A DNA stretch of 64,000 nucleotides from Turneriella sp. (GCA_965279515.1 CBDIID010000003.1:2761097-2825096); one strand, 5' to 3'. Numbered from the stretch's first letter, positions 9,735 through 31,391 are shown. Notes: a model not told the origin generated them from the letters alone. Program-made: numbers and translations.

Positions 9735-10892
9735 TTGACGGTTCGCTGCTTCGTCTTTAAATCCGCCACTTTGTGGAAGTACCTTGCAGCGATCTTTTCG
9801 CTCGCCCTGTTGCCTCTCACCGCCGCGCCGACCGTCAAACGCCTGCTGATCCTGAACCCGGTGAATGAAGGCAGTGAGGCGAATTCCTATATCGGCCCGT
9901 CTCTGGCCGACGCCTTGCGCACGGGCCTCGCCGAAAACTACTTCTTTATACATCCCGAAGCGGATGCCATCGAAGCGGTGCGCAAAGAAAATCTGATCCA
10001 GGACGAAGACCTCTACACCAAATCTGCAGCGCTGCAAATGGGCGCATGGCTCAGGCAAGATCTTGTGCTGGGCGGCAAATACTCTGTCGCCGGCAACCGG
10101 TTGAAACTCAACCTCACGCTTTACGAAATCGAGACCGAAAAGGCCCTCCTCACTTTCAAAAGTGAGACCGCCATTTCGGCGAAAATGTTTGATACCTTTG
10201 CGAAAATCGCCGCTGACCTCGGCAAACAGATGGCTGAGGCGCTGCCATCGCAACAAGATCTCGCGGCGTCGGGTGGCAGATTTTACGATCCGGAAAAAGG
10301 CAAGCGCACCCTGTTGCTGAGTTTTGGTACGCGCGCCGCGGGTTTTGCCAAGACGAATGACAATCTCTCTTCAGGCACGACGGTTTCGACAGCTGAAGCA
10401 CTCCACTTCAATGCTGAGTTTGCCTATCAGCGTCACAATGCGGGTGAAATACTGAACCGCAAATATAAATGGCCCGTATTTGTGCAGTTCAGCCTGAACG
10501 GCGGCTATGCGAAAAAAAATTATGCGCGCGACGGGCAAAGTGTGCCCACACGGGTCATAGCTATAGAAGGATTGCCTTCTTTGGGTTATGCCTTCTCCCT
10601 ACCGAAGGGCATCCGTCTTGAGCCCTATGCGGGTGTCGGCTTTGGTTATTCGAATTATAACTTTGATTATTCGGGGCTTGCCCGCAAACCTGTCGATACC
10701 AGTGCTGCACAGAGCGTTTCGGCACAGACGCTCGAGCAGTTTTATTTTTTCTCTCAGGCGGGCCTGATCGCCAAGTATGCCATCACACCGCGTTGGGCGG
10801 TGGTGTTCGCCCCATCTTTTTCGCTGTTTCATTTTTCTGACGGCGTGCAGGCCGAGCTCAACGCGAAAATCGGGGCGGGGTGGTACTTTTGA
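9735..10892 (+). CDS. Predicted outer-membrane protein: TolB-N/CsgG/FlgO-like alpha/beta domain plus C-terminal beta-barrel
   Basis: Signal peptide; KRLLILNPVN...DLVLGGKY domain; amphipathic strands ending KIGAGWYF (terminal aromatic, BAM-type signal). Confidence 0.6.
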   Translation: MTVRCFVFKSATLWKYLAAIFSLALLPLTAAPTVKRLLILNPVNEGSEANSYIGPSLADALRTGLAENYFFIHPEADAIEAVRKENLIQDEDLYTKSAALQMGAWLRQDLVLGGKYSVAGNRLKLNLTLYEIETEKALLTFKSETAISAKMFDTFAKIAADLGKQMAEALPSQQDLAASGGRFYDPEKGKRTLLLSFGTRAAGFAKTNDNLSSGTTVSTAEALHFNAEFAYQRHNAGEILNRKYKWPVFVQFSLNGGYAKKNYARDGQSVPTRVIAIEGLPSLGYAFSLPKGIRLEPYAGVGFGYSNYNFDYSGLARKPVDTSAAQSVSAQTLEQFYFFSQAGLIAKYAITPRWAVVFAPSFSLFHFSDGVQAELNAKIGAGWYF

Positions 10893-11824
10893 AAAAGGGA
10901 TTGATTCTGGTTCTGGCGGCAGCGGGATTTAGTGCGTGTATTGCACAAAAAACCGTGGGTGTCACATTCACCGAAAGCGGAAAGGGCGTCGGGATTTTTT
11001 CGGGCCAGGTGGATAAGACGGCTACTACGGCCACTACAACTTTAGGCTCGATGGTAAATTCCATAGGCTTGGCTGTTACTATCCTCGAATTCACAGTCAA
11101 AGAAAATGGATCAAAAGACGGCTATCCGCTTCAGATCAAAGAACTGCGTTTTACGAATACCGGCACGGCTGATACTTCCGACCTGCGCTTTGTGCTGGAA
11201 GGCCCGGGAAGCAACAATACAATCGGTACCAGCAGCGGTACGATAGTAACCTTTAAAGACTTTGGCGACATTATCGTAACTGACGGCGATACTACAGGAA
11301 AAACCTATCAGGTGAAAGTGCATGTCCGTTCAAACATTGTCGGTTCCACGGCTGATAATAATACCATCGTCCTGAAGACTTCTCCGGTCACGGATTTTGA
11401 CGTGGCTGAAACCTCTTCTAATTTTTTGCAAAGCGTCGCTTCTTTTCAGCAAAGCCCGGGAACGGCCGTCGATGTTGTCGCCACCACCGTCCAGTTCAAG
11501 GGAACATTCAACTTCGGCAATGTCGCCGTGAGTGCAGCTTTTCCCGGAACACCCTCGGTCTATGCGACAGACGCCAATGGCAGAATCGACAAGAACTGGT
11601 CGACGGCCATTGCGGTGATCGACAAACTAACCGATTGTGCCGGTGCCAACACCGACGCGCCGGGTACATTAACCAACGCTGGTGGTGGTGGACTTTCCCT
11701 GACGCCTACGCAGGGCGTGGTTACTTATACCGACTTACGCTATAACGCTACCGGCTCCATTCAGATCTATGCAACTTCGGCCGGGTTGATTGCGAATTGT
11801 TCGTCCATCATCACGTTACCCTAA
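10889..11824 (+). CDS. Hypothetical lipoprotein, Thr/Ser/Gly-rich and beta-rich (Ig-like?)
   Basis: TTG start overlapping the upstream stop (TTGA); lipobox GFSAC. Confidence 0.65.
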   Translation: MKKGLILVLAAAGFSACIAQKTVGVTFTESGKGVGIFSGQVDKTATTATTTLGSMVNSIGLAVTILEFTVKENGSKDGYPLQIKELRFTNTGTADTSDLRFVLEGPGSNNTIGTSSGTIVTFKDFGDIIVTDGDTTGKTYQVKVHVRSNIVGSTADNNTIVLKTSPVTDFDVAETSSNFLQSVASFQQSPGTAVDVVATTVQFKGTFNFGNVAVSAAFPGTPSVYATDANGRIDKNWSTAIAVIDKLTDCAGANTDAPGTLTNAGGGGLSLTPTQGVVTYTDLRYNATGSIQIYATSAGLIANCSSIITLP

Positions 11825-11832
11825 GTCAGAAC

Positions 11833-11860
11833 TTGTTCCGTCAGGGTGATTCGAACACCC
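11833..11860 (-). other. tRNA 3'-end-like hairpin (T-arm plus acceptor half)
   Basis: Minus strand reads GGGTG-TTCGAAT-CACCC-TGACGGA-A-CAA. No 5' half was found. Confidence 0.3.
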
Positions 11861-11946
11861 GAGTACAAAAGCGGATGCCCCTATCGCCATGGATCGTTGC
11901 GAATTCTTTACCGCATGACGACCAATGGCGTGGCATGCGAGACGCC

Positions 11947-12879
11947 ATGAAAATCATCATCCCCGGTGGCACAGGTCAGCTCGGTCAGGTGCTGCGCCGT
12001 GAGTTTGAAAGCACCGGTGACGAAGTCGTGATTCTCACACGCCGGCCGACCCGGCCCGGCGAAATCGAGTGGGATGGCAAAACGTTAGGCGCATGGCAAC
12101 GTGAACTCGATGGCAGCGACGTCGTGATAAACCTCGCAGGCCGCACGGTGAATTGCCGCTATACCCAAGAAAATCTCGCGCAGATGATGGACTCCCGCGT
12201 CGATTCAACCCGCGTGGTGGGTGAAGCCATCCGCCTTGCGAAAAAGCCGCCGAAGCTGTGGCTGCAGATGAGCACCGCGACAATCTATGCGCATCGCTTC
12301 GATGCCGCGAACGATGAAGCGACGGGAATCATCGGCGGCAGCGAAGCCTGGGTGCCAGAGTACTGGGCATTCAGCGTCGAAATTGCGAAAGCATGGGAGC
12401 GCGAACAGGAAAAAGCAAAGACACCTAAGACGCGCAAGGTCGCCATGCGCACGGCCATGGTCATGGCGCCGGGTAAGGGCGGAGTGTTTGACGTGCTCCA
12501 CAACATGACACGCGGGGGTCTGGGCGGAGCGATCGGCGGTGGCAATCAATTTGTCTCATGGATTCATTATGCCGATTTCTGCGCGGCCGTTCGTTTCGTG
12601 ATGGAAAAAAAGAAACTCGCAGGCGCGATCAATTTTACAGCGCCCAACCCGCTGCCGCAAAAGGAATTTATGCGCGAGCTGCGTACCGCTGCACATGTAC
12701 CGATCGGGTTACCCGCGACAAAATGGATGGCCGAGATCGGCGCCTTTTTTCTGCGCACCGACACCGAGCTCCTTCTCAAGAGCCGGCGCGTGGTGCCGAC
12801 ACGCCTTCTTAAGGAAGGATTTAGATTTGCCTTCAATGACTGGCACACCGCAGCCGCCGATCTGCTGAGCCGCAAATAA
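11947..12879 (+). CDS. TIGR01777 family NAD-dependent epimerase/oxidoreductase (DUF1731 C-terminus)
   Basis: MKIIIPGGTGQLG Rossmann motif, VINLAG, SWIHYAD, NFTAPNP, ELLLKSRRVVPTRL. Confidence 0.9.
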   Translation: MKIIIPGGTGQLGQVLRREFESTGDEVVILTRRPTRPGEIEWDGKTLGAWQRELDGSDVVINLAGRTVNCRYTQENLAQMMDSRVDSTRVVGEAIRLAKKPPKLWLQMSTATIYAHRFDAANDEATGIIGGSEAWVPEYWAFSVEIAKAWEREQEKAKTPKTRKVAMRTAMVMAPGKGGVFDVLHNMTRGGLGGAIGGGNQFVSWIHYADFCAAVRFVMEKKKLAGAINFTAPNPLPQKEFMRELRTAAHVPIGLPATKWMAEIGAFFLRTDTELLLKSRRVVPTRLLKEGFRFAFNDWHTAAADLLSRK

Positions 12880-12884
12880 AGCCC

Positions 12885-14663
12885 ATGGTGCGCCATACTT
12901 CTCTAATACTGCTCATCGCTGCGGGTACATCTTGCTTTTTTACGCGTAACCCTGCATCTAACCCGAACCAGCTGTTCATAACCGATGCCGCCGAACTCAA
13001 AGCTCTTGAGGACCAGGGATTCGGTTTTTCTGAGCTCGTCTTCGCCTCCAAAAAACTTTTAGCCACGAATAAGCAGCTATACCAGGTATCTGCATACAAG
13101 GAAATCAGCGACAGTCTCTCCACTGATCTGAAAAATCTGCCAAAGGCGGATAAACTTTTGGGCGTGGGCATGGCTTATTCGCACAGGCTTTTCAACCCCG
13201 ACTGGCTCGCCGCAGAATCTGCTTTCTATGAACTTGTCGGCATCGTCGCGCGGCTCGACCGCGCACCATTTCAAGCACAGAGCTGCGGCGAGATCCGTGT
13301 TATCTATCGGCTTGCCTACCGTACGCGCAGCGGCAAAAGTACTATTTATTCTCGCCTGCCGATGACTGTGAATGCGGTCTTCTGGGCCAAAGACGAAAAC
13401 AACAGTTCCAACGATTGTCGTAAGGTTGCGGCCTATTGGCAAAACCTGTCGGGAAATTTGCCACGGAATCGGTCGGCTCTGACAGCCGCAAGTCTCAAAT
13501 CCATCGAAGTCAATATGCAGTCCGTGCGCTGGCCTTCCACCGTGCGGCCCGATTTTGGCGGTTATGCAGAATATTTTCTGCGCGTGTTTAAGAAAACAGG
13601 AGGGAAGTATAAACCGGCTGCTCTCGAGAATACTCCGGATGTCAAAAAAATCCAGGGCAGTGCGCAACTAAAAGACGAGATGCTCACCTGGATTTCGCAG
13701 AATCTTACTGCCATCGATCAGGGTATTGCAGTTCTACCCGATAAATTTCTTACCCGAAAAACAACATCGGTTGCGCTCAATGGATCAGGGCGCCTCGCGA
13801 ATTTGCCGTTCCGGCAGATTTTCAGCGAAACGGAAATAGAGCCTTTGGCAAAAGCTGGAAAATACACGGCCTCGGCGGCTTGGCTCTTGCGGCGCCTCGA
13901 CGATATGACCTGCAGTGGCTGTCACCAGGGCCGTGCCGTCGCGGGTTTTCATTTCACGGGCGCCGATCGCCCGGAAACCGACACCGTGAATTCGATCTTC
14001 AATGCCGCATCGCCGCACTTCTTTGCCGATCAAGGAAGACGTCAGCATTATGCCGACGCATTGCTGCAAAAAAAACCTGCCGATAATTACCGCGAGATTT
14101 CACTGCGCAGCGATCATGAAGCCGGTGTGTTCGGTTCTGTTTGTGAAACGGGAGATAGGGCTTTACCTAAGTTCGGCTGCAATGCCGGTTTTGCATGCCT
14201 GCCCCTGAACAGAGACGAAAAAATTCATAACCTGGGTATTTGTCAGCCGGTAACCACGCTCGCAGGTTCCGCGTGTACGAATGGCCAGCCCATCGCGGAT
14301 ATCCATCCGCATAAAGATAGAATTACCAGGAGCAAAAATCTCTCTTGCAACAAGGGTTACCGCTGCCAAAATGTACCGGTGGGTTTTCCCGGTGGCATGT
14401 GTTCCAATAATTGCAGTTCACTTAAAGAGGGAGAAATCTGTGGCAGCATCGCTAACTTGCAGGGCTTCAACGATTGCCTCGCGCGCACCGAGCCGTTCGC
14501 GACCTGCCTTTCAGGCAACGTCAGGCCGGGTGCCTTGAAGGCCTGCGATCAAAACAATGCCTGCCGGCCCGACTATATCTGCGCGAGAATTTCAGGGAAT
14601 AAAGGCGGATGCATACCGCCTTATTTTCTTTTTCAGTTACGCGTCGATGGCCACAACTTTTGA
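12885..14663 (+). CDS. Hypothetical lipoprotein with a CxxCH motif and a Cys-rich C-terminal domain
   Basis: Lipobox-like AGTSC; TCSGCHQG; 16 Cys in the last ~175 aa. Confidence 0.7.
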   Translation: MVRHTSLILLIAAGTSCFFTRNPASNPNQLFITDAAELKALEDQGFGFSELVFASKKLLATNKQLYQVSAYKEISDSLSTDLKNLPKADKLLGVGMAYSHRLFNPDWLAAESAFYELVGIVARLDRAPFQAQSCGEIRVIYRLAYRTRSGKSTIYSRLPMTVNAVFWAKDENNSSNDCRKVAAYWQNLSGNLPRNRSALTAASLKSIEVNMQSVRWPSTVRPDFGGYAEYFLRVFKKTGGKYKPAALENTPDVKKIQGSAQLKDEMLTWISQNLTAIDQGIAVLPDKFLTRKTTSVALNGSGRLANLPFRQIFSETEIEPLAKAGKYTASAAWLLRRLDDMTCSGCHQGRAVAGFHFTGADRPETDTVNSIFNAASPHFFADQGRRQHYADALLQKKPADNYREISLRSDHEAGVFGSVCETGDRALPKFGCNAGFACLPLNRDEKIHNLGICQPVTTLAGSACTNGQPIADIHPHKDRITRSKNLSCNKGYRCQNVPVGFPGGMCSNNCSSLKEGEICGSIANLQGFNDCLARTEPFATCLSGNVRPGALKACDQNNACRPDYICARISGNKGGCIPPYFLFQLRVDGHNF

Positions 14664-14665
14664 GA

Positions 14666-15598
14666 TCAAAACTCCGTAGCGATGATGACCCCGTAAACAC
14701 CGCGGATGACCTGCGTGATCTTTTCATAATCCAGCGTATCGGGAGTATCTGTTGCCTCATGGTAGTTGTGGTTACGCATGAAGGCGGTGTCGGTCACCAT
14801 CGCTGCATTCCAGCCCTGCGCCCAGTAGTTGAGATGGTCTGAAAAATCGACGCCGGTAACAAAAGACGGGGCCGCAAGGGTAATGATTTTGAGCGGTGAA
14901 TGTTTCTGAAAATTTTTCTTGAAGCCGCTCAGTAAATCGCTGTCAGCCTGACGCCCAACGGCGGCGATAAAATTCCCTTCGCCGGGATAAAACCAACTGA
15001 GTCCGGGCGGGTAACTCTGAGATCCCTTCTTATCGGAATAATAGCCGATGGTTTCTAGCGACAGCATATACTTTACCCTCGCCCCTTTATCTTTCAGCGA
15101 GCGTGCATGCACCGCGCTGCCCATGAACTTTGTACGAAAATACGGGGGCTCCTCCAGTGAATAAAACACCAGTTCGTAGTTGTAGCGGAGCGCAGCCTTG
15201 TTCTCGGAAAGATATTTTGCCAAAAGCAATAATCCCGCAACGCCGCTGGCGTTGTCGTCGGCGCCCGGCTGGTCACCGCAGACATCGTAGTGGGCACCAA
15301 TCACGATAATCTCAGCACTCTGTGGGCCGATGTTCGCCACCAGATTGCGGTAGATGCGATTATCCACCTTATAATCCTGAGTGCGGATGGTTTTCGTAAA
15401 CGGCCGCAATTCACGGTTGATATATTTTACTGCTTTTTCGAGCGATTCTATGTTCCGGTGGTTACGCGGTGGTTGAATCGAAGAGAGGGCAGCGACGTGC
15501 CGCTTCACTAGCGCCATATCTTCGACCGGCGAGGCCTCCAGCGAACCTAAGAGCGTGACAGAAATAAGCGCTCCAACGAAACACGAGGCCTTGCGCAT
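14666..15598 (-). CDS. M28 family metallopeptidase
   Basis: IGAHYD, GADDNASG, LEEPP, LETIG, SDH, YHEATD. Confidence 0.9.
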   Translation of the reverse strand: MRKASCFVGALISVTLLGSLEASPVEDMALVKRHVAALSSIQPPRNHRNIESLEKAVKYINRELRPFTKTIRTQDYKVDNRIYRNLVANIGPQSAEIIVIGAHYDVCGDQPGADDNASGVAGLLLLAKYLSENKAALRYNYELVFYSLEEPPYFRTKFMGSAVHARSLKDKGARVKYMLSLETIGYYSDKKGSQSYPPGLSWFYPGEGNFIAAVGRQADSDLLSGFKKNFQKHSPLKIITLAAPSFVTGVDFSDHLNYWAQGWNAAMVTDTAFMRNHNYHEATDTPDTLDYEKITQVIRGVYGVIIATEF

Positions 15599-15699
15599 GC
15601 GAACTTAACGGCATAAAGGATAGCGAAGCGTCAAGTGCCATTTGCCTAAATTCCGATTGACGGAACGCGGCGGTGGATATCCCGCTGACTGCCTACTCC

Positions 15700-16797
15700 A
15701 TGATTTTCAGAAACGTGCTTTTGGTTGTTTTCGTTGCCTCTGCCGGAACAGTATCGGCGCAAACGGCGGCGCTTGCCGATGTGCCGGCAGGTTGCAACGC
15801 GGAAATCCGCCTCAATCGCCCAAAGGTCTATATCGCTAACTTTTACGTCACCTATGGCAAGGCTGACATGGGCAAGAACATCGGCGATTATATTGCACAG
15901 CGCTTCGAAACCGACGGCCGTTTCGAGCTGGTACCGCGCGCTGCGATCAGCGAAACGATGAGCCGTTTTCTGACCGGAAAAAAGATCAGTGCAGACCAAT
16001 ACCTGCAACGCACACTCGCGCTTGCCGCAGGCGAAAACGCCGACTGCGTCATCTTCGGAAGAATTTCAAAAAAGAAAAACAAAGTCTCTTTTTCAGTGCG
16101 GATGTCCTCCGTCAGCAGCGGTGCCAGCGCGCGCAAAGTCGACACCGATGTCGAGCGCGACGCGGCGCTCGGCTTCTTAGAGGGCATCGGCGATTCGTTT
16201 GTCAGTTATTTTGTCACTGCCGCGCCGGTGCCCGTTGCGGACAACAATACCGAGGGCAGACACCGCGGTTTTCACCTGAGTCTTACGGCCGGCAGCGGCT
16301 ACCTCACCGCATCCAAGCCGATCGGCAGTGATAGTTTTTCCGTGGATTCTTTTGCAGGCCATGCAGGTCTGAAAATCGGCGCGGCGATCCGGCCGGATGT
16401 CATTCTGTTCGGCGCCTTCGATGGTTTTATAGGTTTCTCTCCCGTGGGTAAGTTACAGCAGAGCGGCATTCAGGACGCCGTTTCGTTCTCTGAACTCAGC
16501 CATAACATTCTCACAGCGGGTGCGGGGTTGAAATTATACAGCGAAGAAAATTATTTTTTTTCCGCCTCGCTTGGCTTTGCTACCGGAACTCTGGGGTACA
16601 GCAACAACGGCGTCAGCACTTCCGGAAACTCAGGCTATGGTGTGGCAGTGCAGCTCAGCCTCGGCCGCGAATGGTGGATTGCCCAACGCCTGGGCATCGG
16701 CATCGCATTGACGGGCCACTATAGCAACCTGCCGGGAAACTCGGTTTCTGTGAATCAGTATTATGCAGGCCTCGGAATCTCGGCCAGTTATAACTGA
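15700..16797 (+). CDS. Predicted OMP: TolB-N/CsgG-like domain plus beta-barrel (paralog A)
   Basis: Signal peptide ending VSA; PKVYIANFYV...ADCVIFGRI; C-terminal strands ending LGISASYN. Confidence 0.65.
   Translation: MIFRNVLLVVFVASAGTVSAQTAALADVPAGCNAEIRLNRPKVYIANFYVTYGKADMGKNIGDYIAQRFETDGRFELVPRAAISETMSRFLTGKKISADQYLQRTLALAAGENADCVIFGRISKKKNKVSFSVRMSSVSSGASARKVDTDVERDAALGFLEGIGDSFVSYFVTAAPVPVADNNTEGRHRGFHLSLTAGSGYLTASKPIGSDSFSVDSFAGHAGLKIGAAIRPDVILFGAFDGFIGFSPVGKLQQSGIQDAVSFSELSHNILTAGAGLKLYSEENYFFSASLGFATGTLGYSNNGVSTSGNSGYGVAVQLSLGREWWIAQRLGIGIALTGHYSNLPGNSVSVNQYYAGLGISASYN
15790..16215 (+). repeat. 426-bp domain duplication, copy 1 (copy 2 at 17036-17461)
   Basis: Colinear, same-length segments encoding near-identical GCxAEIRxNRPKVYIANF...EGIGDSFVSYFV. 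Confidence 0.9.
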
Positions 16798-16820
16798 CTT
16801 GCAGATCCCTGAAATTCGAA

Positions 16821-16850
16821 TTGACGGCGCGATACGGCGGTTGCTATTAT
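16821..16850 (+). promoter_or_regulatory. Sigma70-type promoter candidate
   Basis: TTGACG-N18-TATTAT upstream of the ATG at 16916. Confidence 0.5.
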
Positions 16851-16915
16851 GAGCCACCGCCTGTTAGCCCTCCGCAGCTATCACTTACATAAAACAGGCC
16901 TTTAATTGAACTACT

Positions 16916-17980
16916 ATGTTAAGACGCTTCCTGATCGCGGCCGCTTGTGTCACAATACCCTGTAAGGTTTTTAGCCAAAATCCCGGCCAAATGATTTCTG
17001 CGACGGGCGTTTCCGGATTAATCAGCCCGCCGACAGGCTGCAGTGCCGAAATCCGCGGCAACCGGCCAAAGGTTTACATCGCCAACTTCTTCGTAACCTA
17101 CGGGAAAAAAGACATGGGCAAGGCGATCGGTGACTATATCGCCGAACGTTTCGAAACGGATGGCCGCTTTGAAATCATTCCCCGGGCCCAGATCAATGAA
17201 ACGATGATGCCTTTTTTCAAGAACAAAAAGGCCACGGCAGACCAATACCTGCAGAAAACGCTCGAACTCGCCGCCAGCCAGGATGCCGACTGTGTAATCT
17301 TTGGCCGCATAGCCAAAAAGAAAAACAAAATCTCTTTTCTTGTACGGATGGCAGCCGTCTCGACGGGAAACAGCGTGCGCAAAGTCGATACCGACGTCGA
17401 AAAAGCCGAAGCCGTCCAATTTCTCGAAGGTATCGGCGATTCTTTTGTCAGTTATTTTGTCTCAGCACCCGCTCTGCCCGTGCCGATTGCAGATAAGCCG
17501 GGAAAAATCCGCGGTTTTTATCTTGCTGCGAATGGTGTCGGCGTTCTTCCCTTTGGTTTCGTGCGCAATGGGTTCTCCTGGGGCTCAGGCGGGTCATTTG
17601 AATTCGGGCATAAAGGGCTGCTGGGCAAAGATTTGTTTTTCGGTGTGAACGGAGAATACGTCTATTATTTCAAGAGCAACGATAATTTTACAAGTCTCTA
17701 TAGCATGACCGCGCTGGGTCTCGCCGGTTATGAATTTCTGACTTTGGAGAAACTGAAATTCCAGCTTGTGCTGTATGGCGGTTACCAGATGGGTCGACTC
17801 ACCGGGGCCGTGGAAACCTTTGATTATGGTTACGGTATCTTTATGGCCGGCAGCCGAGCCGTTTATGATCTGAGCGAACGTTGGGGACTCATGGGTGAAG
17901 CACGCTACTCACTGGCAATTGCGGGTTCAACGAAGATTTCCTCAGTCGGTTTTTCAGCTGGTGGCCAATGGAGGTTTTGA
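16916..17980 (+). CDS. Predicted OMP: TolB-N/CsgG-like domain plus beta-barrel (paralog B)
   Basis: Same N-domain as 15700-16797 with a different barrel ending AGGQWRF. Confidence 0.65.
   Translation: MLRRFLIAAACVTIPCKVFSQNPGQMISATGVSGLISPPTGCSAEIRGNRPKVYIANFFVTYGKKDMGKAIGDYIAERFETDGRFEIIPRAQINETMMPFFKNKKATADQYLQKTLELAASQDADCVIFGRIAKKKNKISFLVRMAAVSTGNSVRKVDTDVEKAEAVQFLEGIGDSFVSYFVSAPALPVPIADKPGKIRGFYLAANGVGVLPFGFVRNGFSWGSGGSFEFGHKGLLGKDLFFGVNGEYVYYFKSNDNFTSLYSMTALGLAGYEFLTLEKLKFQLVLYGGYQMGRLTGAVETFDYGYGIFMAGSRAVYDLSERWGLMGEARYSLAIAGSTKISSVGFSAGGQWRF
17036..17461 (+). repeat. 426-bp domain duplication, copy 2
   Basis: Aligns without gaps to 15790-16215. Confidence 0.9.
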
Positions 17981-19038
17981 TGCGACGTCAAATACACATA
18001 CTACTATCATGCTGTTTCGCACTCGGCATCTCGGATTGTAAATCCTATGAAGACAGCTTTAACCGCGATATCGATAGCACAGGGGTCTACGTACCTAATT
18101 CCGGTTCAAACACAGTTTCGCAACTCGCCGCCGACCCTAAATCCGGCATATTGAATGACCTGGGGCAATTAGGCGTGGGCAACCTGCCCGGTTATCTCAC
18201 AGTAAATTCGACCGGCACGCTTGCATATCTGGTAAACACCAACGACAATTTGGTTCATGTTTACAGCATCAGTAAAACGACGCGCAAACTCACCTTAACA
18301 AGCACGGCAACAACAGGCACGCAGCCGATCATGATCGCCTTCCATGGTTCGGGAAAGTTCGCCTACGTGGTGAACGCTACGTCGAAAACGATCTCGGCCT
18401 ATTCCGTCGATGCGACGAGCGGCGCTCTCACGTCGCTTGGTACTGCCACCAATATGGAGGGCTCCGGAACGCGAATCCCTTATTTTATCGCGATTACAGG
18501 AAACTATGCAATCGTAACCGCTTTGGCTCATGCCGAAATCTATTTGTACGATATTGCGCCCACTACGGGGGCAATTTCTTCAAATGCCACACCTTTTGCC
18601 AACATCGGTGCGCTTCCGAAATGGATTCGCACTGTAGATTCAGGAAATAATCCGTATATTTTCGTTGCGACCGCTGCCAACAAGATTGAATCGTTTCAAT
18701 TTTCCAGTTGGACTCTTAATCCGACGACAGCTCAAACGACTACGGGTGTAAACCCGATGGTATTCAGTTTTAATCCGGCATCTTCTGCGCTGTATGTTTC
18801 TAACTACGATGCCGCGACAATTTCTATCTATTCGGTTTCCGGAATAAACCTGACTTTAACGGGCACAGTTAGTACCTGCACGAACCCTTCGCAATCTTAT
18901 CTCAATTCTTCCGGCTTTATGTATCTCATCTGCAGGGCCGATGGCAAGATTAACGGGTATTCCTATACTTCCAATAGCCTTACAGCCGTTGGCAGCGTGA
19001 CTGTCGGAACAACCCCTGCGAGTATCGCCGGCTACTGA
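17980..19038 (+). CDS. Lipoprotein, lactonase-family (6-phosphogluconolactonase/YVTN-like) beta-propeller
   Basis: ATG overlaps the upstream TGA; signal with ISDC; repeated TGTQP/GKFAYVVN/ISAYSVDATSGALT blades. Confidence 0.75.
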   Translation: MRRQIHILLSCCFALGISDCKSYEDSFNRDIDSTGVYVPNSGSNTVSQLAADPKSGILNDLGQLGVGNLPGYLTVNSTGTLAYLVNTNDNLVHVYSISKTTRKLTLTSTATTGTQPIMIAFHGSGKFAYVVNATSKTISAYSVDATSGALTSLGTATNMEGSGTRIPYFIAITGNYAIVTALAHAEIYLYDIAPTTGAISSNATPFANIGALPKWIRTVDSGNNPYIFVATAANKIESFQFSSWTLNPTTAQTTTGVNPMVFSFNPASSALYVSNYDAATISIYSVSGINLTLTGTVSTCTNPSQSYLNSSGFMYLICRADGKINGYSYTSNSLTAVGSVTVGTTPASIAGY

Positions 19039-19081
19039 CCTTTTTCCTTTTCACCCTGTCTGAATTTTCATTTTTCCACGC

Positions 19082-20098: not shown

Positions 20099-20128
20099 TT
20101 TTGGCAAGATATTCGCCTCACGGCGGGT

Positions 20129-21784: not shown

Positions 21785-21808
21785 TAAGGGGATATCTGCG
21801 ATACCCCC

Positions 21809-24175: not shown

Positions 24176-24567
24176 GTGATTCTCCCGACTGCCTTCAGAT
24201 AGGCAATCGTGGTTCCGAAAATAAGACCAGCCACAGCGGTTAAAGGTGCAATTCTCAGCAGGCGGGGAAACCGCGTCGCCGCGCCGCGATAAACACGAAC
24301 CGATAAGAACAGAATCAACCCCAAACCACAGATGCAGAAAATCCCGAGACCCAGTGTGACATAGTCTCCCGGAAGTTGTGGCTGAAGCAGTCCGGTAAGG
24401 CGGCGGTACGCTGTGACCGCGACACCGCCGAGGATTATACCCAGGGTGGGTGGCAAAAAGATCAAAACCGTCATCAGCCTGGGTTCCAGAAGATCCATCA
24501 CCCGCCGCCGGCGCTCCGCCTTTTGTTCGGCGCGCTTTATCGTTTCATTGCCTGCGCCGATTTCCAT
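24172..24567 (-). CDS. Small hypothetical membrane protein (about 3 TM) between xdhA and xdhB
   Basis: Starts 2 nt after the xdhA stop; its TGA overlaps the xdhB ATG; three hydrophobic stretches. Confidence 0.6.
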   Translation of the reverse strand: MEIGAGNETIKRAEQKAERRRRVMDLLEPRLMTVLIFLPPTLGIILGGVAVTAYRRLTGLLQPQLPGDYVTLGLGIFCICGLGLILFLSVRVYRGAATRFPRLLRIAPLTAVAGLIFGTTIAYLKAVGRIT

Positions 24568-24569
24568 AC

Positions 24570-26021: not shown

Positions 26022-26138
26022 GGCAATACAGGTTCGCTTAAGTCAGCATCTTTTGTGCCAAGCGGATGGCAGTAAAGCAGAAAAGCTTTGGGAGAAAAAA
26101 GTACTCTTGCTTTCGGCGGATTATGCCGATCGACAAGC

Positions 26139-26831
26139 ATGATGTCCCGATTCACCGCCTTCGCCCTCGTTTTCGCTGGCCTCTTTGCCCTCGCTGCAGG
26201 TATCACCGCGATCGATAGCGCGTATAAAAACGCCCCTGATACCGAGGTAAACCTCGAAGACCAGGCGCTCGATTCTCAGATTAAAGAAGAGATCGTAAAA
26301 ATTGAAAAACTGCATACGCTGCGTAACCTGAAATCCATCCACATGGCCCCCCAGCAAACTAAAGTACGCATGAGCAGCAACGGCGAATGCCTCGAAGTCG
26401 ATGCGCACGCAGAAAACCATGAAATGGTCCGTATCAAATCTGCACCGATTGACTACAAAGTGCAGAATATTCAGATCTGCTTCACGGGCGATAAAGTGTC
26501 ACGCATCGAATCGGCTTTCACGACCATTTCACTGCGCAAGCAAGAAACCGCAAATAATAGTTTTGTCCATAAAGACCCGGCCAAGGTGGGGGCCAATGAT
26601 ATTGTACTCACGACGGCAATGAACCAGCGACCGAAGCCGCCGCTACGGGTCGGCGACCTCGAAAACACCAAGGTTAATCCGTTGCGCTTGTCGTTCAAGC
26701 GCGATTATTATTTACCACACCTGCGCAACACAACCTACATTTTACAGCTCACGTACGATTGGCATAAGCGCGAAGCGGTGAAAACAAACGAAAAAACCGT
26801 AAACACCTATATCAACGCGACTACTCCGTAG
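26139..26831 (+). CDS. Hypothetical exported protein
   Basis: N-terminal hydrophobic signal; no recognised domain. Confidence 0.6.
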   Translation: MMSRFTAFALVFAGLFALAAGITAIDSAYKNAPDTEVNLEDQALDSQIKEEIVKIEKLHTLRNLKSIHMAPQQTKVRMSSNGECLEVDAHAENHEMVRIKSAPIDYKVQNIQICFTGDKVSRIESAFTTISLRKQETANNSFVHKDPAKVGANDIVLTTAMNQRPKPPLRVGDLENTKVNPLRLSFKRDYYLPHLRNTTYILQLTYDWHKREAVKTNEKTVNTYINATTP

Positions 26832-27486
26832 CGCCGGCCTTTTTTAGAATTTTACGGATTTCGTCCGTGTCCTTGCTGGGCGTGCCATAACCCTGGCCGA
26901 TAATGCCCAGCGGGGATTGCCCCTGTTTATTGCGGGTCGTTGCCTGCGCGCCGGCCTTCACCAGCAATTTCACGACGATAAGATCGTCGCGCCGCACCGC
27001 ATGGTGCAGCGCGGTTAAACCTTCACTATCCGCCTTATTCACATCAGCGCCGGATTTCAAAAGTAATGCGACAACCTTCGCGACGGCAGCCTTGCGTTTT
27101 TCCAGGGCTTTTGGCCCATCCTTTTTCATTTCTTCTTTGAGACCGGGAGCAGTCCTGCCGCCGCCTGACTTGCGTATATGATGCATATCGAGGCCGCAGA
27201 CCATGAGCGCTGTTTTACCCTCGGCGTCCGTTGTATTAACATCGGCGCCCTTTTTCACCAACGCGGCAACCGCTTCCGGGAAATTACGCTCCGCCGCGTA
27301 CATCAACGGTGTGCCGGCATCGGCAGAGCGCTGGTTGAGTTGTGCCGCGTTCGCGGACAGGGCTTCGTTAACCTCTTTGATATCGCCCGAAGCAATGGCG
27401 GCCATCAGTTTTTGGTTGGGTTCTTCGCCATGTAGCGCCGTCAGCGCCAAGGCGACGAACAAGGTTGGATAAAAAATATTCCGCAT
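26821..27486 (-). CDS. Exported ankyrin-repeat protein
   Basis: Signal peptide; GTPLMYAA, GKTALM, GLTALHHA, GADVN repeats. Confidence 0.9.
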   Translation of the reverse strand: MRNIFYPTLFVALALTALHGEEPNQKLMAAIASGDIKEVNEALSANAAQLNQRSADAGTPLMYAAERNFPEAVAALVKKGADVNTTDAEGKTALMVCGLDMHHIRKSGGGRTAPGLKEEMKKDGPKALEKRKAAVAKVVALLLKSGADVNKADSEGLTALHHAVRRDDLIVVKLLVKAGAQATTRNKQGQSPLGIIGQGYGTPSKDTDEIRKILKKAGATE

Positions 27487-27528
27487 AGCGGCCAGCACCG
27501 CTCTCAAACTTCCGCCGGGAATTCTTTT

Positions 27529-28818
27529 TTAAGCTTTGGGGCTGAAAACCCGGACGGGTTTCTCGCGTCCCTTGACGGGAACCTCGCCTTTTTCGACAAA
27601 CTGAAAAGATTCCCCCGCAGCAACGCGCACTTCTTCAGAAACGAGAATCTCGCTCGCAAACTGCTTGTTGAGCTGCTCGATGCGCGAAGCCACATTGATG
27701 ACATCGCCAATCACGGTGTATTCCTTACGTTTGTCAGAGCCGACATTGCCCGTCAAAGCCTCGCCGCTGTGAATGCCGATACCGATACCCAGGGCTGCAA
27801 CAGTGCCAGCTTCGGTGCGTTTTTTAAGCTCATCGGAAATCACCAGCGCCGTTTTCACGGCGTTGATGGCATGGCTGTTATCGTCGAGCGGCGCGCCAAA
27901 CACGGCGAGAAACCCATCACCCAGGAACTTATTGATGATACCCGAATGCGCATGCACGATATCGATCATAAATTCGAGCAATTTGTTGAGCTCAGTATAA
28001 ACCTCGTGCGCGCTGCGACTCTCCGAAAATGTCGTAAAACTGCGAATATCGAGAAACAGCGCGGTAATATGGCGGATCTCCGCCAGGTTCGTGTCACGCG
28101 ACGTGAGCAGTTTCTGCACGACTTCCTGCGAAACATGTTCGCCGAAGAGCGCCTCAATTTCTTGTTTCTTTCGCTGTGATTCGATAACATGGAGGACGCG
28201 CTGTCTGAGCTGAGACGCGACGAAACCTGCGATCGCCGCGCCGCCCAGAATAAAGAACGCTTTCACAAAGTGGTTGGGCATCGTAAAAAGTAGCGACGGG
28301 TATGGGGGCTGGTTCGTTCCCATAATATGATAAACAAAAGCGATATAGGTAATCGCGGCGCTCAGCCCCGTCGTCAGGCAAATCCAGGGATTCAGCCGCA
28401 GCACCGATAAGATCACGAAGAAAGCGTACGCGAAAAGCGGTGGCATAGCCAGCCCTGCTGCCAGATCACCCTGGGGCGCGAAGAGCCAGAGCGCAAAGCT
28501 CGGTACCGTGCCTTCCATCGCAGCGTTGAAAAGACGTCCCGGTAGGGGCAGCGTTTTCTTTTTACGGGCCAGGCGCGAGATCACGGCGAAGGCGAGTGCA
28601 TAAAACACAGTCACACCTCCAAAAAAAGCCGGCAAAAGAGCTACGTTGACGCGGCCACGGAAAAGTTCATTATAACGCTCCGCGGCAACCAGGTAAAAAC
28701 CGAGGCTGAGCACAAACATCGAAGCAAAACTGATGACGATAATCTTAATGCGCAGGACTTCGGAAGTGGCAATTTCTTCTGAGAGTGCGTCTAAAAGTTC
28801 GGTATTCGGGTGGGCCAT
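27529..28818 (-). CDS. Membrane-bound class III adenylate/guanylate cyclase
   Basis: Multiple TM helices followed by FLDIRSFT, NKFLGDGFLAVFG, GIGIHSG, YTVIGDVINVASRIE. Confidence 0.9.
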   Translation of the reverse strand: MAHPNTELLDALSEEIATSEVLRIKIIVISFASMFVLSLGFYLVAAERYNELFRGRVNVALLPAFFGGVTVFYALAFAVISRLARKKKTLPLPGRLFNAAMEGTVPSFALWLFAPQGDLAAGLAMPPLFAYAFFVILSVLRLNPWICLTTGLSAAITYIAFVYHIMGTNQPPYPSLLFTMPNHFVKAFFILGGAAIAGFVASQLRQRVLHVIESQRKKQEIEALFGEHVSQEVVQKLLTSRDTNLAEIRHITALFLDIRSFTTFSESRSAHEVYTELNKLLEFMIDIVHAHSGIINKFLGDGFLAVFGAPLDDNSHAINAVKTALVISDELKKRTEAGTVAALGIGIGIHSGEALTGNVGSDKRKEYTVIGDVINVASRIEQLNKQFASEILVSEEVRVAAGESFQFVEKGEVPVKGREKPVRVFSPKA

Positions 28819-28873
28819 AACGAAGCCTCAAAACGAATCTCAACCTGTAAATTCTCTTTGCCGAACTGAATAG

Positions 28874-29554
28874 CTATTCAGGAATCCGAATACTAAAATC
28901 GTCAAACGCAAAAGAGATTGGAGTGCCTGGCGTGGCGGCAAAACCATAGACACCTGAATAGCCCGTCACATAAGTTGAATCCAGAACAGTTAATGAATCC
29001 GATACGGCACCGGCTAACTCGCAGCTTAGCTGGTTATATTCCAGTTTAAAGGTTATTAAATATTGATTTCCTACAATAACGGTAATCGGCGATGAAGAAA
29101 CGGACAAATCCGATCGAAGACCTGCACTGTTTTTGAAAATCGTAAGCCTTTTGGGATTTGTAGTCCCGTCAATTCCGCAGAAATATCCATCAGATGGCGC
29201 AGACTTTAACTTTGATCTCGCAACCAGCATAAGCGAATGGTTCTGCGCGGGAAGAGTGGTTAAGGCCGTAAGCCGAGTGGCATGAAACGATTTCCTTTGA
29301 TCTACTTTGCGTGAACAAGCTACAAAAGTATAGTTTCCCCCGGAAAAATTAACTACAGCATTTTGGTTTATGATTGATGCTTGAAAATAATTAACCCCCG
29401 AAACCTGCCAATTTTCACCCAAACTTGAAGAATCGCTCCTGTTGAAATCATCATTGCAGAATTCAGGATTGGATTCCCTTTCCATGTTTAATTGCGTACA
29501 GCACGTAAGAAGCACCAAAATAATTGACCCATAACGCAGTCGAAATCGCAGCAT
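28874..29554 (-). CDS. Hypothetical lipoprotein (concanavalin/LamG-like beta-sandwich), paralog 2
   Basis: LLTCC lipobox; FCNDDFNRSDSSSLGENW motif shared with 29556-30251. Confidence 0.65.
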   Translation of the reverse strand: MLRFRLRYGSIILVLLTCCTQLNMERESNPEFCNDDFNRSDSSSLGENWQVSGVNYFQASIINQNAVVNFSGGNYTFVACSRKVDQRKSFHATRLTALTTLPAQNHSLMLVARSKLKSAPSDGYFCGIDGTTNPKRLTIFKNSAGLRSDLSVSSSPITVIVGNQYLITFKLEYNQLSCELAGAVSDSLTVLDSTYVTGYSGVYGFAATPGTPISFAFDDFSIRIPE

Positions 29555-29555
29555 A

Positions 29556-30251
29556 TTATTGTGCTACCTCCGACTTAAAACTATCAAAGAGTACCGTAAT
29601 CGGCCCGCCTGTCCCTTCGCCGAAGAATCCCACTTGGCCGACCTGAAGGGCGCTATCCGTGGTCCGTAAAGCAACCTGACTCGAGCCGATATTTACGCTA
29701 CACAAAAGCGATGCCCCATCCATCGCGAAAATAATAGATGCTGTTGTTCCTGCAGGAATACTGGAGATTGAATTATCTACCGCTAACTGTATAACGTTTC
29801 CTTGACTAACATTAAACAGAGCAATTTTATTTTGATAGAAGCCACATAAATAAAGGTCTGTGATCAAATTCTTCACGCGCGCCACCAAGGCGAATTTGTG
29901 GTTTGCCAAAGCTGTCATTTGAGGCTGAATTCTAAGCGATATTTTAGATTTGGTATGCTCTATGCGATTCTTACAAGCGAGGACAATATACCTAAGCGTC
30001 AGATCAAGTTTCCCCATTTGGTTGCTGATGCTAACTGTCGGTGGCGCCGAGTAGGGAAATAAGCCTGTAGCCTCCCATTTATCTCCAAGGTCCGAAGAAT
30101 CTGGTCGATTAAACTCATCAGAGCATAAATCGTTATTAGAGGCTTCAAGTAAGTCTACTTGCGCGCAGTTTATGAACACTCCCAAGAGGACAAAAAGGGA
30201 AAAAATAGATCCCGAAACAAAGCGATTAACCGACACCCCCTTAAAAACCAT
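29556..30251 (-). CDS. Hypothetical lipoprotein (concanavalin/LamG-like beta-sandwich), paralog 1
   Basis: FINC lipobox; LCSDEFNRPDSSDLGDKW...GQVGFF...FDSFK. Confidence 0.65.
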   Translation of the reverse strand: MVFKGVSVNRFVSGSIFSLFVLLGVFINCAQVDLLEASNNDLCSDEFNRPDSSDLGDKWEATGLFPYSAPPTVSISNQMGKLDLTLRYIVLACKNRIEHTKSKISLRIQPQMTALANHKFALVARVKNLITDLYLCGFYQNKIALFNVSQGNVIQLAVDNSISSIPAGTTASIIFAMDGASLLCSVNIGSSQVALRTTDSALQVGQVGFFGEGTGGPITVLFDSFKSEVAQ

Positions 30252-31311
30252 AACCCATACCCATTAAAACTTGCAGGGTGTTTAAATCTGCGCCCTGGAA
30301 TAGGATATGTGAGTAACTTCCCATCACTGATAGCGAAAGAGTTCGCCAGAGAATATAACGTAACTCCAGATTTGCGCGCAGTTCAATGTCCCGCGATTGC
30401 AATATGGCATTGTCAAAATCCCGCTGCAGCTCGGAAATTGCAGCACCCACGAGTGCCGAGAAATGGATGGTAAACGTTCGAAAAGCTGAATAGCCGAAAT
30501 CCACGCCACCCAATATAGAAACGGGTTGAATACGTAAGCCAGGAAAGATACCTGCTTTATTCTGGTATTTAACGTAAGAGCCTGCAATTACAGGTGAAAA
30601 ATGGAATCTACCCGACTGAAATGCCGAATAACCAATCTGACCATAAATTCCGAATGCGCCTTTGTAAATTTCGCTGAATTGTCCCTGCAGTGGCGCCGAG
30701 TAGAATCCGTAGACACCAACGTGAAGTTCGTTTGTTTTTTGATAGCGAATAATTTCTTCGCGTGGGAGCGGAGGTAAGGCTGTTTTCATTTTCATACTCA
30801 TCTTATTGGAAAGCATATTAATGCCCTCAAATAATTTCAGGCTGGTTACCTGCATGACAATATTTTCCGTCACTTTTACCCGTTGGGATTGAACGTCGAT
30901 AGCTTGAGCCTGAACCTGGGCAACTCCCTGGATCGTCAGAAAATTACCAATCAGCACAATATCAGCCTCAGCTTTCTTTCCCAAACCAACTGCCGTTTCA
31001 ATTTCGTATAACTTAGCGGCCGAAATTTGCAGATCTTGAGCGAGTTTGCGACCTTTTTGTGGATCAAGGATATCAAAGGAGCCCGTTTCCTCCAAAGGTT
31101 TTACAAAGGAATCGGGAATTGTTGGTGTTAGGAAATCACTCGCCACATCTTTTTTCTGGTTAACGAAATCCAGAATCAACACACGGCGCTTAATCATTTC
31201 CTTAGCACCGATAGTGGAAGAATACACCAGGAACAAAAGGAAGAATAAGCAATAATTTTTCACTGGATTAGCACCGGAAAAATGAACGTCACGTAAATAG
31301 ACTTTCACCAA
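30241..31311 (-). CDS. Predicted OMP: TolB-N/CsgG-like domain plus beta-barrel
   Basis: Signal; RRVLILDFVN...ADIVLIGNF; barrel ending MGMGYGF. Confidence 0.65.
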   Translation of the reverse strand: MVKVYLRDVHFSGANPVKNYCLFFLLFLVYSSTIGAKEMIKRRVLILDFVNQKKDVASDFLTPTIPDSFVKPLEETGSFDILDPQKGRKLAQDLQISAAKLYEIETAVGLGKKAEADIVLIGNFLTIQGVAQVQAQAIDVQSQRVKVTENIVMQVTSLKLFEGINMLSNKMSMKMKTALPPLPREEIIRYQKTNELHVGVYGFYSAPLQGQFSEIYKGAFGIYGQIGYSAFQSGRFHFSPVIAGSYVKYQNKAGIFPGLRIQPVSILGGVDFGYSAFRTFTIHFSALVGAAISELQRDFDNAILQSRDIELRANLELRYILWRTLSLSVMGSYSHILFQGADLNTLQVLMGMGYGF

Positions 31312-31391
31312 TAGCTGCCAGGAATTCCGGTGTTTTTCCTCGGGCTCAAAATCCTTGACCCGGCATAACGCGGCACACCAACGCTACCATT

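Follow-up and report, generated by a model that had tools for sequence, protein, structure and literature searches.

Recurrent pairing of outer-membrane protein and lipoprotein genes in Turneriella: candidate periplasmic docking modules

In a 64,000-nucleotide stretch of DNA from Turneriella sp. (GCA_965279515.1, CBDIID010000003.1:2761097-2825096; hereafter the window, from whose first letter positions are counted), three loci combine genes for outer-membrane proteins (OMPs) with genes for lipoproteins, and this pairing is real, recurring across the genome far above chance. We propose that the loci are translationally coupled operons, each of an OMP and one or two cognate lipoproteins, in which a barrel-anchored periplasmic domain would dock the lipoprotein under the outer membrane, a reading to which we assign a probability of about 0.45. 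Literature searches on Leptospira, TolB, CsgG, DUF1554, DUF5683 and Turneriella turned up neither the architecture nor the pairing, which is apparently undescribed.

Three loci and their proteins

The open reading frames and the layout of the three loci, with overlapping or abutting junctions, were confirmed from the DNA. At the first locus, the OMP P0001 (385 aa; 9735..10892, + strand) consists of a signal peptide, an LpoB/TolB-N-like periplasmic domain (about residues 31-173), a linker and an 8-stranded barrel ending in GAGWYF, and its partner P0002 (about 311-314 aa; 10880..11824, + strand) has the lipobox GFSA-C. P0002 begins either at a TTG at 10889, which shares bases with the TGA stop of P0001 at 10890-10892 (TTGA), or at a GTG at 10880 (-13). 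The segment that follows the lipobox in P0002 (CIAQK..GVTFTESGKG) and its N-terminal half are more conserved than the variable C-terminal half. Orthologues of the two genes are directly adjacent in at least nine other Turneriella genomes, with junctions of 0, -1, -4 or -13.

The second locus, also on the + strand, has two OMP genes. P0004 (354 aa; 16916..17980), with a signal peptide, a TolB-N/PelC/GNA1162/LpoB-like domain bearing a conserved Cys pair and an 8-stranded barrel ending in GGQWRF, adjoins the lipoprotein gene P0005 (352 aa; 17980..19038, ATG at 17980; lipobox LLSC-C); stop and start share the sequence TGATG (17978-17982), with GGAGG 6 nt upstream. The pair is kept, with a 13-nt overlap, in L097, the syntenic locus in a further Turneriella MAG. 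All 58 homologues of P0004 are annotated 'hypothetical protein', and those with a named source come from Turneriella sp. The other OMP, P0003 (365-374 aa; 15673..16797, likely start 15700), has the same N-terminal domain as P0004 (66% identity over about 190 aa) and a C-terminal region of unrelated sequence, and is followed after 118 bp by P0004, not by a lipoprotein gene. Because it is missing from L097, P0003 is probably a recent duplicate.

At the third locus, on the - strand, P0006 (at most 356 aa, its start being uncertain; 30241..31311) has a signal peptide and the N-terminal domain of the other three OMPs; its database gene call, of 318 aa, omits the signal peptide, and a word-based homologue search found only seven close relatives. 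Its tail of about 170 aa, ending in GMGYGF, is presumably barrel-like, judging by sequence pattern and paralogy. P0006 overlaps by 11 nt the gene for P0007 (231 aa; 29556..30251; lipobox FIN-C, conserved segment C..SNNDLCSDEFNRxDSSxLG), which is followed, at a spacing of 1 nt and with GGAGG upstream, by that for P0008 (226 aa; 28874..29554; lipobox LLT-C), a paralogue of P0007 with 29% identity. At loci L001 and L002 a P0007 orthologue comes after the OMP orthologue, and in L001, where a P0008 orthologue is present as well, the three genes are kept as a unit between different flanks; in this one case the pairing is relocated as a unit.

The initial annotation had given all four OMPs a common N-terminal domain, and one iterated profile indeed recovers P0001, P0003, P0004 and P0006; pairwise, P0001 matches P0006 (E 3e-7) and has no significant match to P0004. 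The proposed AD-x-V-x-x-G motif is invariant as D109/V111/G114. Structure models and Foldseek support the call of a TolB-N/CsgG-like domain followed by a β-barrel: the AF2 models of two of the four, P0001 (pLDDT 92, pTM 0.74) and P0004 (pLDDT 87), comprise an N-terminal α/β domain and an 8-stranded barrel. The barrel of P0001 matches Ail (TMt 0.59), OmpX, OmpA and NspA, and that of P0004 matches NspA (TMt 0.79) and OmpA (0.70). The N-terminal domains match LpoB (4q6l, TMt 0.65 at 21% identity) and GNA1162 (0.68) for P0001, and TolB, GNA1162 (0.60) and PelC (0.56-0.59, including PelC dodecamer matches) for P0004; both are compact (about 145 aa, in a superfamily whose fold spans about 130-150 aa) and contain no CsgG-type transmembrane hairpin insertion. 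That all four proteins end in barrel strands holds for the two models, and P0001, P0004 and P0006 have the aromatic ends WYF, WRF and YGF; P0003 ends in ISASYN. All four carry type I signal peptides and are not lipoproteins.

When the eight window proteins were compared with Pfam and NCBIfam, all matches except the propeller of P0005 fell below threshold. For the N-terminal domains the weak matches were DUF3280 (0.009-0.04), FlgO (0.011) and LpoB TIGR02722 (0.0026), P0006 having weak matches to all three families, and the barrel of P0001 reached 6.9e-4 against PF13505 OMP_b-brl (20.3 bits, cut-off 28.7). Lipobox-type signal peptides occur in all four downstream proteins; our strict predictor passes P0002, P0007 and P0008, and P0005 passes by the loose rule or by eye only (LLSCC). 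Among the cargo types first suggested, the propeller stands, P0005 being a lactonase-type 7-bladed β-propeller (PF10282, 1.6e-22). An Ig-like P0002 and LamG-like P0007 and P0008 could not be confirmed because PDB sequence searches of P0002 and P0007 gave nothing usable, and the family scans placed P0002 in no family.

Enrichment and conservation of the pairs

The genome-wide count of these OMPs and their downstream neighbours, proposed in the initial annotation, showed that lipoprotein genes are enriched downstream. The N-terminal domain is found in 39 genes, among which Pfam matches are to CsgG (7, best 6.7e-12), FlgO (4, best 2.2e-6) and LpoB (3). The next gene downstream is predicted to encode a lipoprotein for 14/19 members with a barrel-like tail and 5/5 with a DUF5683-type tail, against 2/11 with other tails and 0/4 with the N-terminal domain only. 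On the same strand and within 150 bp, a lipoprotein gene follows 12/27 (strict rule) to 19/27 (loose rule), or 44-70%, compared with 10.0% and 14.6% for all other genes (Fisher p 5e-6 and 1.3e-10). The enrichment persists under both rules, and absolute counts are approximate, as the gene models are longest ORFs picked greedily and the lipoprotein predictor, a regular expression with a hydrophobicity rule, is crude too, marking 10-15% of all genes as positive. In a similarly crude control, other ORFs with an aromatic C-terminal residue had a lipoprotein gene downstream in 18-26% of cases. Lipoprotein genes are enriched upstream too (7/20 to 9/20), and part of the signal therefore reflects a general tendency of envelope genes to cluster. 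Roughly one in four barrel-type members lacks a lipoprotein partner; in one orthologous subgroup the next gene downstream is purF. Several of the downstream lipoproteins' paralogues are encoded with no such OMP gene beside them.

The pairs persist across Turneriella and occur in other families of the order; in one genome from another family of Turneriellales (G018) the pairing pattern was 12/25, with barrel-type members weakly associated with lipoproteins. Lipoprotein families follow OMP subfamilies in duplication: the P0001-like subfamily is accompanied by DUF1554 lipoproteins and the DUF5683-type subfamily by lipoproteins with the NCLN..CF motif. The notion of dedicated OMP and lipoprotein pairs is thus borne out by enrichment, retention across genomes, co-duplication by subfamily and the relocation of one pair as a whole. 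To speak of a spirochaete system is too broad, as the expansion is confined to Turneriellales: Turneriella genomes have 22-40 copies of the domain and Leptospiraceae 1-5, all weak matches, with no match there to the P0001 subfamily profile.

Domains in the downstream lipoproteins include DUF1554, He_PIG, Lcl_C, FG-GAP, Laminin_G_3, Big_5, β-helix and SBBP, and these proteins evolve faster than the OMPs (31-32% identity vs 65%). Two apparent fusions were set aside, an OMP joined in frame to a P0002-like lipoprotein in another genome (G011) and a metagenome protein (P0020) comprising half a barrel and a DUF1554 lipoprotein; both resemble deletions between short repeats and are not evidence of interaction.

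Docking, export or clustering

In the docking reading, the working part of the OMP would be its periplasmic LpoB/TolB-N/FlgO/PelC-like α/β domain, which the OmpA/OmpX-type barrel would tether beneath the outer membrane. An anchor rather than a pore is suggested because the barrel is 8-stranded and pairing persists with another type of tail. The lipoproteins, with their predicted β-rich, adhesin-like or enzyme-like domains, would each be docked by their own OMP, probably via the conserved segment right after the lipidated Cys, and the two may make up a discrete outer-membrane complex that would serve to position or stabilise the lipoprotein or to pass it on. Shine-Dalgarno sequences inside the 3' end of the OMP genes accompany the overlapping or abutting junctions; we infer the physical binding, its interface and effect, and the final location of the lipoprotein. 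Purely periplasmic docking does not itself explain the adhesin-like domains and fast evolution of the lipoproteins, features that suggest surface exposure. The upstream enrichment, the unpaired barrel-type members, the lone lipoprotein paralogues and the weak association in G018 also count against this reading. It is possible, although rather unlikely, that the pairs form a modular sorting and display system of Turneriellales, in which a receptor LpoB/FlgO-like domain on an 8-stranded barrel or DUF5683-type tail would read the post-Cys segment (for example CIAQK..GVTFTESGKG, C..PFELD.EFG or C.K.xKDxNCLNPxxGCF) and decide the surface assembly or display of its cognate lipoprotein.

The surface-type domains listed above, together with the fast-evolving lipoproteins and their variable C-terminal halves, would also fit an export usher, whose N-terminal domain captures the lipoprotein in the periplasm and passes it to a general flippase of LptD or BAM type; surface display would then require the partner OMP, without the OMP being the channel. 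General LptD-dependent export of surface lipoproteins is reported for Bacteroidota and, recently, for Borrelia. Yet surface exposure is here putative, the lone lipoprotein paralogues would require a partner in trans, and the genome gave no LptD Pfam match, albeit in a search that is weak for divergent homologues and matched only 2/14 control genomes; we regard this route as improbable. It seems more doubtful still that the proteins have no physical partnership, the layout arising from clustering and co-regulation of envelope genes or from small operons duplicated as blocks. Upstream enrichment, lone members on both sides and the permissive lipoprotein predictor agree with such an origin, but it sits poorly with the strong downstream asymmetry and start/stop overlaps, the persistence of pairs across genera while their flanks differ, the restriction of the association to paralogues with a membrane tail, and the specificity of lipoprotein families for OMP subfamilies.

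The initial annotation had likened the layout to Slam/type XI secretion, in which a dedicated barrel, alone or oligomeric, carries the lipoprotein to the surface; here this is very unlikely. The systems are alike in that a gene for an OMP with a periplasmic N-terminal domain and C-terminal barrel adjoins the gene of a lipoprotein that it may serve, in Slam of Neisseria and other Proteobacteria as in Turneriella, where the adjacency is enriched. CsgG and PelC, relatives of the same fold, form rings that serve export, and PelC dodecamers were among our matches. Slam, however, has a TPR N-terminal domain and a 14-stranded DUF560 barrel, whereas the window OMPs have a compact LpoB/TolB-N-like domain without CsgG hairpin insertions and barrels of the OmpA/OmpX/NspA type that look too narrow for such a channel, 8-stranded barrels of this type having no lumen able to pass a protein. 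The four OMPs had no match to PF04575 (SlipAM/DUF560) or TPR at E <= 1, and a DUF560 search of the genome found none, although control genomes gave none either, making the control uninformative. Retention of the pairing where a DUF5683-type tail replaces the barrel, and the existence of lone lipoproteins, also speak against this mechanism. Adjacency of OMP and substrate genes is nonetheless the logic by which Slam substrates were found (PMC5449769).

Relation to known systems and significance

The docking reading has parallels elsewhere. LpoB, PelC, GNA1162 and CsgG have the same N-domain fold in a periplasmic domain attached to the outer membrane that binds partners or forms rings, and LpoB-PBP1B and PelC rings are precedents for the fold binding partners under that membrane; however, all of these proteins have a lipid anchor and none carries an 8-stranded barrel, and CsgG has transmembrane hairpins that the window OMPs do not. 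In OmpA-type proteins an 8-stranded barrel likewise anchors a periplasmic domain, and the lipoprotein RcsF of E. coli is found in complex with such barrels; but their domain order is the reverse of that found here, where the periplasmic domain is N-terminal, their OmpA_C domain binds peptidoglycan, and the window partners differ from RcsF in being encoded in cis and highly diverse. PorP/SprF with T9SS adhesins and SusC/SusD of Bacteroidota similarly comprise many paralogous OMP genes adjoining genes for surface proteins, although their barrels are larger or TonB-dependent and belong to other secretion systems in another phylum, so this is an analogy only. In the Vibrio H-ring, a FlgO/LpoB-fold domain held against the outer membrane's inner surface makes β-sheet contact with FlgP, a lipoprotein encoded by the neighbouring gene (bioRxiv 10.64898/2025.12.02.691832). 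FlgO, however, is lipid-anchored, forms a 58-fold ring encircling a flagellar motor and binds one partner only, whereas the window OMPs have a barrel anchor, dozens of different partners and no flagellar context, their neighbours being purine-catabolism, cyclase, peptidase and SDR genes.

The surface placement of spirochaete lipoproteins is understood only in part, an LptD route having been reported for Borrelia recently. With 20-40 paralogous OMP-lipoprotein pairs encoded in cis per genome, these bacteria offer a natural cognate set for specificity rules such as post-lipobox motifs, and the pairs may reveal a new accessory step in outer-membrane lipoprotein assembly. Turneriella parva is a culturable species that is not pathogenic, and the proposal is therefore directly testable. 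Even if the pairs are simple structural complexes, they represent a hitherto unannotated architecture that joins an LpoB-like domain to an OmpA-like barrel, all homologues with a named source being labelled 'hypothetical protein' at present; modular recognition, if true, would constitute a new class of dedicated lipoprotein sorting or display factor, distinct from Slam, LptD and BAM.

Gene layout and domain architecture

Open reading frame (ORF) listing and translation bore out the three loci of the initial annotation, in each of which an outer-membrane protein (OMP) gene precedes lipoprotein genes. At locus 1 (+), the OMP P0001 (9735-10892) is followed by the lipoprotein P0002 (start 10880 or 10889, end 11824); locus 2 (+) comprises the OMPs P0003 (start 15673 or 15700, end 16797) and, after a 118-bp gap, P0004 (16916-17980), then the lipoprotein P0005 (17980-19038); at locus 3 (-), the OMP P0006 (31311-30241) precedes the lipoproteins P0007 (30251-29556) and P0008 (29554-28874). 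As read from the DNA, P0001 and P0002 meet at TTGA (or overlap by 13 nt with a GTG start instead), P0004 and P0005 at TGATG with GGAGG 6 nt upstream, P0006 and P0007 overlap by 11 nt, and a 1-nt spacer with GGAGG upstream separates P0007 from P0008; to judge by sequence, arrangements of this kind usually go with translational coupling. Ordinary signal peptides begin all four OMPs, and lipobox-type signal peptides (GFSA-C, LLSC-C, FIN-C and LLT-C) all four downstream proteins. The database call for P0006 (P0009, 318 aa) begins at an internal ATG and lacks a signal peptide; the lengths of its homologues (334-349 aa) suggest initiation further upstream, from GTG or TTG. An SDR/epimerase-like gene (PF01370 and DUF1731; 11797-12879, +) shares its first 28 nt with the end of P0002 and may belong to the same operon as P0001/P0002.

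Pfam and NCBIfam scans of the window OMPs gave only sub-threshold matches, to DUF3280 (0.009-0.04), FlgO (0.011), LpoB TIGR02722 (0.0026) and OMP_b-brl (6.9e-4). In pairwise comparison P0001 matched P0006 weakly over the LpoB/TolB-N-like alpha/beta periplasmic domain (N-domain; 3e-7) and did not match P0004. Iterating a single N-domain profile over the entire genome until convergence gave 39 ORFs (the family), all four window OMPs among them; scanned singly, these ORFs matched CsgG (7/39, best 6.7e-12), DUF5683 (5/39), FlgO (4/39), LpoB (3/39) and OMP_b-brl (3/39). AlphaFold2 predicted for mature P0001 (71-sequence alignment, mean pLDDT 92, pTM 0.74) an alpha/beta domain at residues 1-140, a linker and eight strands, and the same layout for P0004 (57-sequence alignment, mean pLDDT 87, pTM 0.50). 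In Foldseek searches of the PDB the barrels matched Ail, OmpX, OmpA, NspA and OmpW, the best match being NspA for P0004 (TM 0.79), while the N-domains matched the LpoB C-terminal domain (TM 0.65, 21% identity), GNA1162 (0.60-0.68), PelC (0.56-0.59), including its dodecamer structures, and the TolB N-domain. Given these models and matches for P0001 and P0004, the earlier description of a TolB-N/CsgG-like domain joined to a beta-barrel was correct.

P0003 and P0004 are tandem duplicates (15673-17980) whose N-terminal 190 aa are 66% identical; pairwise comparison detected no sequence similarity between their C-terminal/barrel regions, and P0003 ends in SYN, not in an aromatic residue. Other N-domain architectures include tandem pairs before the membrane tail in some proteins of G018, a genome from another Turneriellales family (C22:43996-44865, C46:44931-45782, C50:22640-23497, C40:7924-8769), and P0120 (629 aa, a metagenome representative), which lacks a membrane tail and in which the N-domain leads straight into an Ig-like segment and GKWLI(I/L)HGN repeats resembling modules of the downstream lipoproteins.

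Lipoprotein pairing across the genome

The proposed recurrence of the layout held genome-wide. In a crude gene set covering the whole 4.9-Mb genome (4583 genes), with lipoprotein signal peptides scored by a crude predictor under strict and loose rules and neighbours restricted to the same strand within 150 bp, a lipoprotein lay downstream of 12/27 (strict) or 19/27 (loose) family genes, as against 10.0% or 14.6% of all other genes (Fisher p = 5e-6 and 1.3e-10). A crude OMP control, other ORFs with an aromatic last residue, gave 18% and 26%. Upstream, under the same limits, lipoproteins were found at 7/20 (strict) or 9/20 (loose) family genes, part of this signal arising because two modules stand in tandem at C3:3.010-3.018 Mb. 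When all 39 genes were curated by eye for C-terminal tail type, a lipoprotein gene lay directly downstream of 14/19 members with a barrel-like tail, 5/5 with a DUF5683-type tail, 2/11 with other tails and 0/4 with the N-domain only; it is thus the membrane-anchored members that show the association, whether or not the anchor is a barrel. The five DUF5683-tail paralogues (G000 C3:644826-645887, 2107136-2108326, 2991181-2992140, 3513572-3514576 and 4605935-4607008) have in common the motif PGWGxxYKQR, a pair of ~25-aa hydrophobic segments and a beta-signal-like C-terminus, which is RF, AF or SF in three of them.

The downstream lipoproteins are diverse. The propeller predicted at locus 2 was substantiated for P0005, a lactonase-type 7-bladed propeller (PF10282, 1.6e-22); P0007 and P0008 are paralogous (29% identity), and P0002, P0007 and P0008 had no family or solved-structure match in Pfam, NCBIfam and PDB searches, which thus lent no support to the labels Ig-like (P0002) and LamG-like (P0007 and P0008) of the initial annotation. 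Elsewhere, DUF1554 lipoproteins (post-lipobox C..PFE(L/I)D.(E/Q)FG) accompany P0001-like barrels, and Laminin_G_3 or Big_5 lipoproteins of 370-2100 aa (post-lipobox C.K..KD.NCLNP..GCF) accompany DUF5683-type members; He_PIG, Lcl_C, FG-GAP, beta-helix, SBBP and EPTP domains also occur. By these sequence signatures, the lipoproteins fall into families that track OMP subfamilies. Very large lipoproteins (1200-2140 aa), three in tandem at G000 C3:2108419-2127223 and others at 795673-801441, 1269879-1273592 and 4602032-4605667, share the motif C-x-x-L-K-L-D-K-D-x-N-C-L-N-x-x-S-G-C-F-K-x-D directly after the lipobox; this motif may serve as a signal for sorting or docking, and its two cysteines could form a disulfide.

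Conservation, relocation and fusion

In each of the Turneriella genomes searched, the P0001-subfamily profile found 13-24 copies. In at least nine other genomes, P0001 orthologues (C-terminus G[AV]G[FWY]YF) precede P0002 orthologues (C-IAQK..(GV/DL)TFTE(S/G)GKGAG) at a junction of 0, -1, -4 or -13 nt; among the P0002 orthologues the post-Cys segment and N-terminal half are conserved (0.75-0.8) and the C-terminal half is not (0.3-0.5). A sister subfamily precedes DUF1554 lipoproteins at -4 in three pairs of this genome (G000) and also in relatives. At the syntenic locus L097 of another Turneriella MAG, the P0004-propeller pair is kept beside purM with a 13-nt overlap, and P0003 is absent. A lipoprotein follows 12/25 N-domain genes in G018, most of these being DUF5683-type members (10/14); four more genomes, representing other families of the order, contain similar pairs.

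The P0006-P0007-P0008 module lies inside a purine-catabolism region. The same three-gene unit occurs in a metagenome contig with quite different flanks (CMD, methyltransferase and Metal_hydrol, versus class III cyclase and urate oxidase in the window), and the G+C of the window copy (28001-32000) is 0.47-0.48 against 0.52-0.58 in its flanks, which would fit insertion of the module in one piece. Between the two copies the OMPs are 65% identical and the lipoproteins 31-32%.

Fusions were also seen. At L062 in the relative genome G011 (C1:1183351-1187406, -), P0001 and P0002 orthologues are joined in frame in one 655-aa ORF at a shared GAG tripeptide, the former without its last 4 residues and the latter without signal peptide, lipobox and first ~17 mature residues; an SDR/epimerase-like gene follows at -4. 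The ORF may have arisen by deletion between short repeats, or it may be a functional fusion, in which case the lipoprotein domain would lie in the periplasm. P0020 (1148 aa, a metagenome representative) joins the N-domain and about half a barrel to a long lipoprotein of DUF1554 type and probably reflects a deletion or a chimeric assembly. The OMP-lipoprotein junctions seem deletion-prone.

Proposed docking, possible export, and distribution

Slam combines a TPR domain with a 14-stranded DUF560 barrel, and OmpA/OmpX-class 8-stranded barrels have no channel able to pass a polypeptide. The initial annotation likened the OMPs to Slam-type translocons with dedicated cargo. However, the modelled OMPs have an 8-stranded barrel and an LpoB/TolB-N-like domain, DUF560 and TPR were both absent from the window OMPs (family scan; AlphaFold2 of P0001 and P0004), and pairing persists where a DUF5683-type tail replaces the barrel; translocation through the OMP is thus improbable. 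Genome searches for Slam and LptD, with weak controls, gave no match. Since pairing survives barrel replacement, the N-domain is probably the part acting on the lipoprotein.

LpoB binds PBP1B, PelC is a dodecamer and CsgG a nonamer. In the Vibrio H-ring, FlgO contacts the lipoprotein FlgP via a beta-sheet (bioRxiv 10.64898/2025.12.02.691832). FlgO, LpoB, PelC and CsgG share the N-domain fold, and at the outer membrane's inner face they bind partners or form rings. On these several grounds we tentatively favour the OMP as a cognate docking adaptor (probability roughly 0.45), in which the N-domain would dock its lipoprotein at that inner face and the barrel would merely be an anchor. A variant in which the docked lipoprotein is handed over to a general export route, the OMP controlling surface display, is favoured by the rapid evolution of the downstream lipoproteins and by their adhesin-like domains; we consider it somewhat unlikely. 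That the genes are neighbours only is a doubtful reading. Against strict dependency stand the 5/19 barrel-type members with no lipoprotein partner, the P0007-like (4/6) and NCLN-motif (2/8) lipoproteins with no family OMP nearby, and one orthologous OMP subgroup followed by purF.

Both folds are known, as are cis-encoded OMP-lipoprotein partnerships (Slam, SusC/D, PorP/SprF, FlgO/P, LptD/E). We found neither a publication nor a curated family for the fusion of an LpoB/TolB-N-like domain to an 8-stranded barrel, or for systematic pairing of such OMPs with lipoproteins; named homologues are annotated 'hypothetical protein' from Turneriella sp., and only 414 clusters match at E <= 1e-3 among 1.84 billion representative proteins. 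The general N-domain profile gave 22-40 copies per genome in Turneriella, 0-36 in other Turneriellales and 1-5 weak ones (E about 1e-12 to 1e-19) in Leptospiraceae. The P0001-subfamily profile had no match in 16 Leptospiraceae genomes; among other spirochaetes it gave matches in 25/150 genomes, all at N-domain level but for one full-length match. Of the supposed undescribed spirochaete system, 'undescribed' stands and the spirochaete-wide scope does not: on these profile searches, the OMP-lipoprotein pair system is confined to one little-studied order.
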